Origin: Escherichia coli
Lineage (GTDB): Bacteria > Pseudomonadota > Gammaproteobacteria > Enterobacterales > Enterobacteriaceae
DNA length: 1,565 nucleotides
NCBI RefSeq assembly: GCF_024223415.1
Contig: NZ_CP100510.1
Reading direction: 5' to 3' (one strand)
A program made the position numbers and the translations under genes. This document shows positions 1 through 1,565 of this stretch, piece by piece. Each line of letters opens with the position of its first letter. Position 1 is the first letter of the stretch. The notes below the pieces were generated by a model. That model saw only the letters and a list, made by a program, of their open reading frames with translations, made no database searches and was not told the origin of the DNA.

Positions 1-585
1 ATGTGCAAATGTAATACCGTCACCCGCGACGATATTCCGTTTGCCATCTGGTCAGGGCTTCGCCCCGACACCCCGCATCAGTGCGTACGTGCTCAATGTG
101 GTTTCCGGTTCTCTTCCGCTTCCTCGCCCACTCGCTCACTAACGTTCGGTCGCTGGGGCTGCGGCGAGCGGTGCCACCTCTCGCATGTTGTCGGTGATTC
201 CGCTGTTGTTCTTTCGGGGATAAGTCGTCAGATAGCCCTTCAAACGCGCTCAGAAGCTCTCAGACGCACGAAACGGGGTTTAAATGCCCGTCAGGGCATG
301 GAAGGCGCGAAAAACGCTTACAGAGCGTTTCAGGAGGTCAGGCGCGCCGATACCCCTAGCCAGGGGCTTTCAGGTCGCCAGGAACCGCGCCAGCCCCCTG
401 CAAAGCCCATTTGCACGGTACAGGCAGCCACTCGGTTGGTAGGTGGTCGTAGACCGTCGGTGTTACAGCGATGGGGGTCTGGGGTTCTCCCCAGACGGTT
501 TCCGGTTGCGCTCAAGGCGCTGCCGGAACCGTGGCGGCTCGATCGTTCTGGAGATCGGGGAGCAAAAACACGCAAGGGATTTTGA
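1..585 (+). CDS. Longest ORF (194 codons), of doubtful coding status; hypothetical protein only if real
   Basis: An ATG at position 1 opens a frame that runs to TGA at 583-585. Against coding: the product is Arg/Gly/Ser/Pro-rich and low in complexity. It uses many rare codons (aga, agg, ata, cta, cgg). It also runs straight across blocks that are non-coding in ColE1-family plasmids (111-172) and across the stem-loop cluster at 477-559. It is listed only because gene callers may report it. Confidence 0.15.
   Translation: MCKCNTVTRDDIPFAIWSGLRPDTPHQCVRAQCGFRFSSASSPTRSLTFGRWGCGERCHLSHVVGDSAVVLSGISRQIALQTRSEALRRTKRGLNARQGMEGAKNAYRAFQEVRRADTPSQGLSGRQEPRQPPAKPICTVQAATRLVGGRRPSVLQRWGSGVLPRRFPVALKALPEPWRLDRSGDRGAKTRKGF
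50..74. repeat. Perfect 25-bp inverted copy of the oriT-proximal hairpin element (partner at 1386-1410)
   Basis: ggtcagggcttcgccccgacacccc (50-74) is the exact reverse complement of ggggtgtcggggcgaagccctgacc (1386-1410). Identity stops on both sides. Confidence 0.9.
111..172. other. ColE1-type conserved block downstream of oriT (region of the primosome-assembly / single-strand initiation hairpins in ColE1-family plasmids)
   Basis: ctcttccgcttcctcgc (111-127) and ggctgcggcgagcggt (157-172) are identical to the pBR322/pUC strings ctcttccgcttcctcgc...ggctgcggcgagcggt. The interior is similar but diverged. A long-range stem pairs 116-119 plus 124-128 with 163-171, leaving a 4-nt bulge. Assignment as a pas/ssi site relies on homology of position in ColE1 and is not demonstrated here. 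Confidence 0.4.
477..559. other. Three adjacent stem-loops (RNAI/RNAII-like fold) in the part of the ColE1-like backbone where antisense copy-control RNAs would map
   Basis: SL-A pairs 477-484 with 489-496 (8 bp, loop ttct). SL-B pairs 497-511 with 517-530 (one bulge, one mismatch, one T-G, loop tcaag). SL-C pairs 538-544 with 553-559 (7 bp including one T-G, 8-nt loop). The two T-G pairs would be G-U only in plus-sense RNA. I could not identify a clear promoter or T-run terminator on either strand. Confidence 0.25.
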
Positions 586-622
586 GGCGGCAAAAGAGCA
601 ATGCAGGATAGACAACCCGATG

Positions 623-640
623 TCAAATGTTAACATTTGA
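623..640. repeat. 18-bp perfect palindrome tcaaatgttaacatttga
   Basis: Every position from 623 to 640 pairs with its mirror position, and the centre is GTTAAC. It lies in the intergenic gap between the ColE1-like region and the 3' end of rep. On the minus strand, TTGACA (complement of 621-626) overlaps its edge. Confidence 0.9.
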
Positions 641-651
641 ATCAGATTGTC

Positions 652-668
652 CAAAAACGGGGTTTTTG
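652..668 (-). terminator. Weak hairpin downstream of the rep stop codon (possible rep terminator)
   Basis: caaaaac-ggg-gtttttg (652-658 paired with 662-668) lies ~20 nt past the rep stop in the minus direction. The stem is almost all A-T and no separate T-run follows, so it is a poor canonical terminator. Confidence 0.25.
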
Positions 669-686
669 CCTGTGCCTGCCGCTGGC

Positions 687-1166
687 TCAATTTGAAAACA
701 TGGCCATGATTCGGCGCTGAATATCACCGTCTTTGTTGACCAGTGTTTTAGTGACAAACGCCGCGTAGTTTTTAGATGTGTTGTATCCCTTCCAGACTTC
801 ATGTGGATCGAGTGCATACGCACAAACCTTACCAGCAACAGGAATTCTGACTAACGCGTTTTTTGATTCTAAGTAGTTGAGCCAGCGCTTAATTGTGCTT
901 CGGCTAACACCCAATTTATCTGCTAAAAACTGCTGATCGGCAACAACAGCACCGCATGAGGGATCTATGTGCTCAGCTAAAAACGAGTAAAGCGGTATTG
1001 CTACAACTCCCTGCTTGTCCTTCGACAGTTCTCGGATCCTTTCCCAGCCCTTCTGATAAACCTGGGTGAATGGGCCGTTATTTTTCGGATCTGATTCCGA
1101 TTCTTTGTTTAATTTTTCCAGTTCTTTTAGACGCTTTTTTCGCTGCTCTTCAGTCCCGATATACAT
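687..1166 (-). CDS. repA: Small plasmid replication-initiator-like DNA-binding protein (159 aa, helix-turn-helix, RepA-type)
   Basis: Complete ORF with ATG at 1166-1164 and TGA at 689-687. GGAG (complement of 1174-1177) lies 7 nt upstream of the ATG. Residues ~80-101 (FLADKLGVSRSTIKRWLNYLES, nt ~864-929) fit a classic HTH pattern (G-V-S-x-x-T-I-x-R-W). The N-terminus is Lys/Glu-rich (EEQRKKRLKELEKLNKESE). It is the only ORF with ordinary amino-acid composition, and it sits directly downstream of iteron-like repeats in a tiny plasmid-like sequence. The Rep function and the repA symbol are inferred from context and from recollection of pKL1-type plasmids, not from a search. Confidence 0.8.
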   Translation of the reverse strand: MYIGTEEQRKKRLKELEKLNKESESDPKNNGPFTQVYQKGWERIRELSKDKQGVVAIPLYSFLAEHIDPSCGAVVADQQFLADKLGVSRSTIKRWLNYLESKNALVRIPVAGKVCAYALDPHEVWKGYNTSKNYAAFVTKTLVNKDGDIQRRIMAMFSN

Positions 1167-1173
1167 GGTAAAT

Positions 1174-1177
1174 CTCC
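1174..1177 (-). promoter_or_regulatory. Shine-Dalgarno (GGAG) of the rep CDS
   Basis: The minus strand reads ccgtGGAGatttaccATG, with 7-nt spacing to the start codon. Confidence 0.7.
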
Positions 1178-1185
1178 ACGGTCTA

Positions 1186-1237
1186 ATGATGGCTCAAATA
1201 TAAGCCATCATAGCTCAAACGTAAACCATGATAGGTC
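1186..1237. repeat. Three phased ATSATRGSTC boxes (1186, 1207, 1228; 21-bp period), with boxes 1 and 2 also forming a 9-bp inverted repeat; candidate Rep operator
   Basis: The boxes are atgatggctc (1186-1195), atcatagctc (1207-1216) and atgataggtc (1228-1237), starting exactly 21 bp apart. atgatggct (1186-1194) is the perfect reverse complement of agccatcat (1203-1211). The boxes bracket the predicted -35 and -10 of rep. Confidence 0.6.
1197..1225 (-). promoter_or_regulatory. Candidate sigma70 promoter for rep (-35 TTTACG, 17-nt spacer, -10 TATATT)
   Basis: The minus strand reads TTTACG (complement of 1220-1225), then 17 nt, then TATATT (complement of 1197-1202). The -10 lies about 30 nt upstream of the rep ATG. 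It sits in the 8-nt spacer of the 9-bp inverted repeat at 1186-1194/1203-1211. Confidence 0.5.
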
Positions 1238-1241
1238 GACC

Positions 1242-1292
1242 TAGCTCACACATGCGTGAGCTAACCTTAGACCACACATGCGTGAGCTAACC
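1242..1292. repeat. Iteron-like repeats: two perfect 20-bp direct repeats, the first extended into a 22-bp near-palindrome
   Basis: cacacatgcgtgagctaacc occurs at 1247-1266 and again at 1273-1292 (20/20 identical, 26-bp period). tagctcac (1242-1249) pairs perfectly with gtgagcta (1256-1263) around acatgc. The half-site TGAGCTA/TAGCTCA recurs at 1211-1217, 1242-1248, 1257-1263 and 1283-1289, with a related tagctaa at 1304-1310. Confidence 0.75.
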
Positions 1293-1293
1293 C

Positions 1294-1350
1294 ATAATGC
1301 AAGTAGCTAAAAAATCAATAACTTACAAAATCGCCCTTAAATATCTTTTC
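1294..1350. other. A+T-rich tract flanking the iterons, with an IHF-consensus core; candidate unwinding region of the vegetative origin
   Basis: G+C is about one quarter by hand count, versus roughly 60% in 61-180. AATCAATAACTTA at 1313-1325 matches WATCAANNNNTTR at every specified position and is preceded by an A6 run. No convincing DnaA box was found. Confidence 0.35.
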
Positions 1351-1355
1351 TGCTG

Positions 1356-1385
1356 AAAGTGTTGCGCAAAGCGGAACACTTTTTT
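1356..1385 (+). terminator. Rho-independent terminator-like hairpin, plus-strand orientation
   Basis: Stem 1359-1367 pairs with 1371-1379 (gtgttgcgc / gcggaacac, one G-G mismatch at 1364/1374), with an AAA loop. Six T residues follow immediately (1380-1385). On the minus strand only three T would follow, so the orientation is plus. Confidence 0.6.
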
Positions 1386-1450
1386 GGGGTGTCGGGGCGA
1401 AGCCCTGACCCAGTCACGTAGCGATAGCGGAGTGTATACTGGCTTACTCC
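1386..1450. other. ColE1/pMB1-type origin of transfer (bom/oriT) with conserved nic motif
   Basis: gggtgtcggggcgaagccctgacccagtcacgtagcgatagcggagtgtatactggcttac is nearly identical to the pBR322/p15A bom segment as I remember it (gggtgtcggggcgcagccatgacccagtcacgtagcgatagcggagtgtatactggctta). cagtcacgtagcgatagcggagtgtatactggctta is unchanged. By homology to the CTGG|CTTA nic I recall, the nick would fall between 1442 and 1443. An imperfect hairpin is present at gtcggggc-gaa-gccctgac (1391-1409). Confidence 0.7.
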
Positions 1451-1565
1451 TCTGCAAGCCTTACCAGCTGTGATTTTTGCCAGATTTCACGCTCTCAACG
1501 TTCAACAGCTCCATCATGGTTTTGCCGTCCGTTCACCGCTAAAACGCCTCAGAAATCGGGACAGG

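Follow-up and report, generated by a model that had tools for sequence, protein, structure and literature searches.

Two opposed transfer origins as the likely source of a perfect 25-bp inverted repeat in a 1565-bp Escherichia coli plasmid

A 1565-bp stretch of Escherichia coli DNA (contig NZ_CP100510.1; hereafter the window, by which the whole stretch is meant) carries the sequence GGTCAGGGCTTCGCCCCGACACCCC at positions 50-74 (arm A), which is the exact reverse complement of GGGGTGTCGGGGCGAAGCCCTGACC at 1386-1410 (arm B), the latter forming part of a plasmid origin of transfer (oriT). The question raised by this locus is why the same hairpin element should be present twice, in opposite orientations, around the site at which transfer begins. 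A preceding reading made from the letters alone (hereafter the sequence-only reading) took arm A for an extra copy and considered recent duplication, gene conversion or selection as its cause. Our analyses make it very probable that the explanation lies elsewhere, namely in a plasmid without a relaxase gene that holds two oriTs of different type head-to-head, both with a common outer module, and that has two helper routes open to it.

The repeat and the two transfer origins

The two arms are identical over 25 of 25 positions and, when mismatches are allowed, the inverted repeat reaches 34 nt with 88% identity. In 500 dinucleotide-preserving shuffles the longest exact inverted repeat measured 9-18 nt, mostly 10-12 nt, and exact 25-nt pairs are expected by chance at about 1e-9; the perfect inverted duplication claimed earlier is exact and lies beyond all of these shuffles. 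Furthermore, at least a dozen records of circular E. coli plasmids (e.g. NZ_CP059129), all 1565 bp long and of the Col(MG828) replicon type, match the window from end to end at 100% identity, and coverage of 80% or more is reached by about 200 PLSDB records. Circularity, which the sequence-only reading had left as a condition, follows from this full-length identity: the window is a complete circular plasmid, with 204 nt between the arms once its two ends are joined. These 204 nt had been said to contain nic, of which the enclosure stands, but two nick regions were found within it, one per strand, and not a single one. We believe the Col(MG828) plasmids to be the pKL1 family. Neither a relaxase gene nor any mob gene was identified in the window by open reading frame (ORF) and domain analysis, and the plasmid should thus depend on helpers.

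The first oriT, of ColE1 type, occupies 1386-1447 on the plus strand. Arm B constitutes its outer hairpin module, in which GTCGGGGC-GAA-GCCCTGAC represents positions 6-24 of the 25-mer, and is followed at 1411-1447 by the core and nick region, CAGTCACGTAGCGATAGCGGAGTGTATACTGG/CTTA (here and below the slash marks the nick). By analogy with the established ColE1/pBR322 bom region, the putative nic, TACTGG/CTTA, is placed between 1442 and 1443 on the plus strand. Window positions 1387-1446, comprising arm, core and nick region, are 96-98% identical to ColE1-like plasmids, several of which encode MobC, MbeB, MbeD and a MOBP relaxase. In the window arm B is followed by CAGTCACGTAGCGATAGCGGAGTGTATACTGGCTTA, and the same core follows the same 25-mer in mob-encoding ColE1-like plasmids; the 25-mer is exact in one of them (L015) and shows 1-2 mismatches in two others (L013 and L014), and 1411-1446, i.e. 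a 32-nt core and the nick region GTATACTGG/CTTA, is identical to the ColE1-type cores of all three. Arm B is accordingly situated where ColE1-type plasmids have this sequence, as had been proposed.

The second oriT was revealed by a junction search, in which window positions 1326-1565 joined to 1-194 were used as a query. Positions 1553-1565 followed by 1-75 matched conjugative plasmids of 80-115 kb at 90-92% identity, and the region in question, read on the minus strand from 74 down to 1 and continuing to about 1553, is 92% identical to the IncI1 oriT region over 88 nt, i.e. an oriT of R64 type. In two such plasmids, one IncI1/B/O (L007) and one IncI-gamma/K (L008), the matching segment immediately precedes nikA-nikB, which encode the IncI1-type relaxosome; both have, in the same position, a 25-mer identical to that of the window and ending 14 nt before the nikA start codon. 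Arm A, which reads GGGGTGTCGGGGCGAAGCCCTGACC on the minus strand, is the corresponding outer hairpin module (50-74); it is followed on that strand by AGATGGCAAACGGAATATCGTCGCGGGTGACGGTATTACATTTGCACATCCTGTCCCG in the window and by AGATGGCAATTGTAATAGCGTCGCGTGTGACGGTATTACAATTGCACATCCTGTCCCG in the IncI plasmids. The core (1-49, minus strand) contains homologues of repeat B (AAACGGAATATCGTCGC, 42-26) and repeat A (GTGACGGTATTACATTT, 23-7) and ends with GCACAT (6-1), the beginning of the nick region, whose 3' part (1553-1565, minus strand) reads ...CATCCTG/TCCCGATT across the window junction. Minus-strand positions 6-1 together with 1565-1557 give GCACATCCTGTCCCG, as found upstream of nikA in both IncI plasmids, and the nick region ACATCCTGTCCCG is identical in the three, which suggests a nic between 1562 and 1561 on the minus strand. 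Repeat A is identical to that of IncI1 at 16 of 17 positions, with the same spacing, and its sole change is compensated in repeat B. NikA is described as binding one arm of the R64 17-bp inverted repeat (Furuya and Komano 1995, as cited in PMC5789077), and repeat A of the window is, by its sequence, the putative NikA-binding arm.

As single-stranded DNA the R64-type oriT is predicted to fold into the outer hairpin, a large inner hairpin formed by repeats A and B, and a single-stranded nick region (-19.5 kcal/mol, z = -4.3). The same layout of two hairpins and a free nick region is predicted for the ColE1-type oriT, and it is kept in four R64-type variants with unrelated inner sequences. Indeed, the stretch of 40-45 nt that separates 25-mer and nick region, and that houses the putative NikA-binding repeats, has been replaced wholesale at least four times among Col(MG828) plasmids, as seen in the window, in L011, L012, L018, L044 and L048, and in the metagenome loci L141-L190; the resulting inner versions, at least four or five, are unrelated to one another and have each their own inverted repeat, with the arm and ACATCCTGTCCCG remaining constant. 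These swaps look like a cassette exchange of helper specificity.

Homology thus indicates that arm A is the native outer end of an apparently complete second oriT on the minus strand, and not an extra copy of arm B: it is contiguous with an IncI1-type oriT, and an identical 25-mer occupies the corresponding place in IncI1 plasmids. Among the roles suggested earlier, that of a second relaxosome site came close, with the correction that arm A would be the outer hairpin of an oriT in its own right, located on the opposite strand. The two nick regions are separated by a spacer (1448-1552) that has two alleles among relatives and is specific to the Col(MG828) family, no match outside this family having been obtained in the junction search. 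Beyond arm A, and outside the repeat, a ColE1-like flank extends over 75-180 on the plus strand (GCATCAGTGCG ... CTCTTCCGCTTCCTCGC ... GGCTGCGGCGAGCGG), which presumably corresponds to the ColE1/pBR322 primosome-assembly region. The resumption of ColE1 homology at 75, already noticed from the letters, is confirmed by the match of 75-173 to ColE1-like plasmids at 88-96% identity. In mob-encoding ColE1-like plasmids GCATCAGTGCG is found about 10 nt after nic, whereas in the window it comes after arm A, at 76-86; compared with the plain ColE1-type layout, some 190 nt (the spacer and the inverted R64-type oriT) replace about 10 nt.

We infer from this arrangement how the plasmid could be moved. 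On its nicked strand each oriT would consist of three parts, a 25-nt outer hairpin module, a specificity core and a nick region, and two such modules, when opposed, would read as an inverted repeat, perfect over 25 bp, with both nick sites between its arms. The plasmid itself would supply cis sites only. NikA and NikB, provided in trans by IncI-complex conjugative plasmids, would nick the minus strand, and MbeA-D/MobC, provided in trans by co-resident ColE1-type plasmids, would nick the plus strand, the pore coming from a conjugative plasmid; a single plasmid would in this way possess two independent mobilisation routes. The action of each arm would be local: on the transferred strand it would serve as distal hairpin to the oriT it belongs to. 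In work by Furuya and Komano of 2000, the 8-bp inverted repeat of R64 is reportedly needed for efficient termination of transfer, and the outer hairpin may have a comparable role. Inverted, facing arms with a spacer of about 200 nt are probably the sole stable way of holding two such sites, and the layout would persist because direct 25-bp repeats 200 bp apart would invite deletion and back-to-back arms would form a 50-bp palindrome.

Variation of the arms, the enclosed segment and the rest of the plasmid

The exact 25-mer is native both to IncI-type oriTs (L007, L008) and to the oriT of a mob-encoding ColE1-type plasmid (L015), so that opposing two such oriTs gives a perfect inverted repeat without duplication or conversion. 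For an unbiased view of co-variation between the arms we considered 76 dual units, recovered from metagenome contigs with only the two nick regions as anchors, together with further loci; not all of them are independent, several being near-identical plasmids. The arms were identical in 30 of the 76 and different in 46, by 1 nt in 27 units, 2 nt in 8, 3 nt in 7, 4 nt in 2, and 5 and 9 nt in one each. The commonest variant, C13T, occurs in arm A alone, beside an unchanged arm B, in more than 25 units, while in pMG828-1 (L012) both arms deviate, arm A by C13T and arm B by A15C, and L018 shows five differences between its arms.

A recent origin of arm A as a copy of arm B, or gene conversion keeping the two identical, would account for the 25/25 identity in the window and in the commonest relatives despite a strongly diverged rep module. 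Such an origin is nevertheless very improbable. The exact 25-mer belongs to IncI1 and mob-encoding ColE1-type oriTs that have no second copy, about 63 nt more of IncI1-type oriT are contiguous with arm A, many relatives have non-identical arms, and the arms group with their own oriT type rather than with the partner arm of the same plasmid. Duplication and gene conversion were both rejected on the distribution of arm variants and on the native exact copies in both oriT families, and the suggestion that perfect identity points to either of them does not hold.

A different possibility is that the arms act together, the transferred single strand forming a 25-bp stem that holds its 5' and 3' ends in one loop and aids recircularisation or termination, while a cruciform in supercoiled DNA might help relaxosome assembly. 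The stem proposed by the sequence-only reading is indeed found in the predicted fold of the 254-nt single-stranded segment, complete over 25 bp (-58.5 kcal/mol, z = -7.6), although a stem of this kind is expected of any perfect repeat, and a loop of 204 nt makes the extrusion of a cruciform kinetically very unlikely. All paired oriTs in small plasmids, moreover, are arranged as joint action would require: wherever a plasmid locus with two oriT-type arms was found, these are inverted and face each other, the 25-mers being outermost, and arms differing by 1-3 nt would still be able to pair. Three observations oppose it, and lead us to consider joint action improbable. Firstly, the arms of the 46 units differ by up to 5-9 nt and no compensating change was found in the partner arm in any of the 76; the co-variation of the two copies, for which a comparison of relatives had been proposed, is absent. 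Secondly, the changes that are observed keep the own hairpin of each arm. Thirdly, most carriers, IncI1 and ColE1-type plasmids included, hold a single copy, so that the module is able to work unpaired. The lack of covariation between the arms shows that no selection maintains perfect long-range pairing.

The variants are more informative about the local hairpin, in which positions 6-13 of the 25-mer pair with 17-24 over 8 bp around a GAA loop. The pair G6-C24 has become T-A in an arm of L018, and C13-G17 has become T.G or T-A, the changes to T-A being compensatory; free variation is seen at positions 14-16. Pairing holds for 96.6% of cells across 22 distinct arm sequences, with two pairs changed on both sides, values that 12-13 of 500 shuffles also reach, and the substitution pattern therefore lends modest support to the local hairpin. 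On the nicked strand the hairpin reaches -6.6 kcal/mol, but on the complement it is weaker (-4.5 kcal/mol), because there the conserved G.T becomes A.C; this difference fits a role on the transferred strand.

Paired oriTs were also compared for their type. The distance between paired arms ranges from 197 to 368 nt, reaching about 507 nt in L009, and the two cores of a pair always differ in type: ColE1 with R64-like, a 'TATCTTG' type with ColE1 (L017), the 'TATCTTG' type with R64-like (L009), two different R64-like cores (L044) and two different 'TTTCCTG' cores (L036). This would be consistent with selection for two helper specificities.

The enclosed segment might, alternatively, be a small mobile or invertible element with the arms as its terminal inverted repeats, such as a miniature inverted-repeat transposable element (MITE) or an invertase-controlled switch. 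Its 25-bp perfect termini around 204 bp, at a place where a typical ColE1 plasmid has about 10 nt, have the appearance of one. This explanation is scarcely credible in view of the flanks, ACACTTTTTT and GCATCAGTG, which show no target-site duplication, of the window, which contains no ORF for a transposase, invertase or recombinase, and of the arms themselves, which elsewhere usually occur singly, as parts of oriTs (IncI1, ColE1-type, MOBQ-type). Inversion isomers of the enclosed segment had also been envisaged. An end-to-end match to a synthetic query with the inverted junction was obtained in none of 5426 complete E. coli genomes, whereas the normal junction was present in 336 records from 316 of them. 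In PLSDB the single full-length match to the inverted-junction query (L016; NZ_CP138471, 2967 bp, Klebsiella pneumoniae) is not an isomer but a cointegrate of the window plasmid and a complete 1395-bp plasmid resembling L017, which natively has a ColE1-type oriT adjoining the same flank. The cointegrate has the ColE1-type oriT, of about 65 bp, duplicated in direct orientation at both junctions, the product expected of oriT-oriT recombination, whether relaxase-mediated or homologous. Both identities, the MITE (no target-site duplication, single arms elsewhere) and the invertible segment (no inverted orientation in the genomes screened, no recombinase ORF), were consequently rejected, and the notion of the repeat as a scar of relaxase-mediated recombination found no support.

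The two opposed oriTs thus remain our preferred explanation, under which the repeat is in itself ordinary, a by-product of two oriTs with a common outer module. Several points nevertheless weigh against it. The R64-type core of the window is just 92% identical to IncI1 oriTs, its repeat B has diverged, and the junction search returned no conjugative plasmid with exactly this core variant. The proposed nicking and mobilisation by either helper are deduced from homology, the part of the outer hairpin in termination is putative, and since 1-3 differences between the arms would not prevent their pairing, some long-range effect is compatible with the data. Finally, similarity of sequence is no guarantee of function: the relaxase-less plasmid pEC156, with two functional oriTs (F-type and a 93-bp R64-type), is mobilised by F and R64drd11, but pKPN2, with an R64-like oriT, was reportedly not mobilised by R64drd11 (PMC4743918). 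By analogy, the R64-type oriT of the window may or may not be usable by NikA and NikB, pEC156 speaking for it and pKPN2 against.

As regards the remainder of the plasmid, the only substantial coding sequence is that of a 159-aa helix-turn-helix (HTH) protein (PF13730), a Rep gene of HTH_36 type. No evidence of coding emerged for a mini-ORF on the minus strand of the spacer (MMELLNVESVKSGKNHSW) or for a program-called ORF at 1-585, and an Rfam scan of the window yielded nothing relevant, the RNAI family included. The region upstream of rep (1186-1292) contains direct repeats of 21 nt, namely ATGATGGCTCAAATATAAGCC with its variants, and the palindrome TAGCTCACACATGCGTGAGCTA twice; these elements, which presumably serve as iterons or as an operator, are entirely different in the 1552-bp subfamily. 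In comparison with a 1552-bp relative (L002, CP099019), window positions 1-600, the GC-rich non-coding half with the R64-type oriT, are 99-100% identical, while the rep gene and its upstream repeats (900-1400) reach only 49-75% identity, which shows the plasmid to be a mosaic in which a common oriT/non-coding module is combined with alternative rep modules. Two relatives show duplications, L005 a 28-nt tandem one around window position 183 (GCATGTTGTCGGTGATTCCGCTGTTGTT) and L004 a longer one, covering about 270 bp of GC-rich non-coding sequence, after window position ~640.

The 25-mer in other plasmids and in chromosomes

The occurrence of the outer module outside the Col(MG828) plasmids was surveyed by scanning GTGTCGGGGYGMAGCCCTGACC in one genome per species, which yielded at least 120 loci. 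Among the matches listed, the 25-mer precedes not only ColE1 and many R64-like cores but also cores ending in the RSF1010-type nick sequence TAAGTGCGCCC, which adjoin MobA_MobL relaxase ORFs on Burkholderiales-type contigs; the matches range from Enterobacteriaceae to Burkholderiales, Xanthomonadales and a Lachnospiraceae metagenome-assembled genome (MAG), and at oriT loci the 25-mer is always located 5' of an inner repeat and nick on the nicked strand, with the G.T wobble kept. A 22-25-mer was found before oriT-like cores at MOBQ-like loci (L025, L078, L060, L037, L082, L098 and L139), in two of which (L025, L078) its end lies about 14-17 nt before the mobA start, to be compared with the 14 nt before nikA in IncI1. 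It is also present near PF03432 relaxases in gammaproteobacterial MAGs, Thiomonas and a Lachnospiraceae MAG (L041, L088 and L067), and near a NikA-like gene in Dickeya (L030). Contrary to expectation, it is absent from RSF1010 (L140, IncQ1/RSF1010-type), where the same position (1170-1200), upstream of the inner repeat, is occupied by another hairpin, CACCGCCC-GAA-GGGTGG, which is GC-rich and likewise has a GAA loop and a G.T wobble.

It is conceivable, though we hold it rather doubtful, that the 25-mer GGGGTGTCGGGGCG(A/C)AGCCCTGACC is a conserved module common to the oriTs of unrelated relaxase classes, with a common partner that reads the hairpin. This module may span ColE1/HEN, the IncI complex, other MOBP systems and RSF1010-like MOBQ systems with the TAAGTGCGCCC nick. 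Such conservation would in that case imply a common partner reading the hairpin on the transferred strand; the hairpin's reader could be a host factor or a factor associated with the coupling protein, or the hairpin could be a priming or termination signal, and in plasmids with facing oriTs the two copies might clamp the ends of the transferred strand together. A published analysis describes oriT nucleotide sequences as conserved only around nic (PMC5789077), and a text search with the 19-nt core gave no match in the literature searched, so that conservation of the 25-mer across classes may be unreported so far. If true, it could help the computational finding of oriTs (MOBQ as well as MOBP), and it raises the question of what reads the hairpin.

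Exact 25-mers were, in addition, observed at intergenic sites of chromosomes with no relaxase nearby, in Planctomycetota (MAG copies L050, L068, L034, L040, L045, L052, L077, L085, L091 and others), in Methylobacterium (L064, L071, L112) and in Clostridia MAGs (L099, L136). The Planctomycetota copies occupy many loci and, among the matches listed, are always followed by GC(C/T)CGCCGCGNAGGCG; one back-to-back pair lies 31 nt apart, giving them the look of repetitive extragenic palindromes. In the Clostridia MAGs the 25-mer is found directly 5' of a ribosome-binding site. No Rfam family was assigned to the chromosomal copies in a scan of these.

Two further groups of matches concern the provenance of records. 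Contigs of about 0.5-1.7 kb with the Col(MG828) dual oriT, some at very low coverage (L021, L046, L062, L075, L090, L048, L117, L131, L137 and others), occur in assemblies of Rhizobium, Halobacillus, Flagellimonas, Acinetobacter, Clostridium and Pseudomonas, and most likely represent laboratory or sequencing carry-over, not the true host range. A 54.7-kb record (L019, NZ_CP019265) contains many copies of the ColE1-type oriT, with 22 matching places; it was not relied on, and has elsewhere been discarded as a suspected sequencing artefact (preprint 10.1101/2024.01.30.577996).

Comparison with known mobilisation systems

The annotation of these plasmids is at odds with their oriT content. In PLSDB/MOB-suite, NZ_CP059129, which is identical to the window, is labelled 'non-mobilizable', while its close relatives L002-L006, with the same two oriTs, are labelled 'mobilizable'; a 'non-mobilizable' label on a plasmid with two apparently complete oriTs bears on estimates of how many plasmids so labelled can move.

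The oriT of R64 (NikA/NikB, MOBP) resembles the minus-strand oriT of the window in its nick region, ACATCCTG/TCCCG, its repeats A and B and its outer 25-mer, all in the same order and with the same spacing, and in present-day IncI1 and IncI-gamma oriTs the 25-mer and nick region are identical to those of the window. Unlike R64, the window has no nikA/nikB in cis, its repeat B and one base of repeat A differ (92%), and its R64-type oriT sits on a 1.5-kb plasmid beside a second oriT. With the bom region of ColE1/pMB1 (MbeA-D, MOBP5/HEN) the window has in common arm B, the 32-nt core and TACTGG/CTTA, which are essentially identical, as well as the ColE1-like sequence that continues after arm A from 75. 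It differs from ColE1/pMB1 in lacking mob genes, in having, from 4 nt past nic, the spacer and an opposed R64-type oriT, and in its replication: instead of an RNA II system it has an HTH Rep gene with upstream repeats, and no RNAI was detected by Rfam.

Small plasmids with two oriTs offer closer parallels. A 1549-bp relative (L011) has the same dual-oriT layout as the window, and may, judging by its size, be pKL1. The small cryptic E. coli plasmid pBuzz is reportedly a rolling-circle replicon with two oriTs that are both of I-complex type; in comparison, the window plasmid has one oriT of ColE1 type and a Rep of the HTH_36 type, making it the same kind of plasmid in a different family. A ColpVC plasmid (L009), probably of the pBuzz type, has its oriTs facing each other in like manner, each bounded on the outside by a form of the 25-mer with 1-3 mismatches. 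The accounts of pBuzz given in PMC11389934 and PMC6807383 (from Moran and Hall 2019, Plasmid 101:10) describe two inversely oriented oriTs and mobilisation by a B/O plasmid; on these accounts, the window plasmid is alike in being relaxase-less with two oriTs on opposite strands. For pKL1, a 1.5-kb cryptic E. coli plasmid, oriTDB lists the nic CATCCTG/T (PMC7755788), i.e. one oriT in the database as quoted there, versus two in the window. The plasmid pEC156, already mentioned, likewise combines two oriTs, one of them R64-type, with the lack of a relaxase, but its partner oriT is F-type and its replicon ColE1-type. Relaxase-less plasmids with dual oriTs have hence already been described in pEC156 and pBuzz, and the window plasmid adds one to them.

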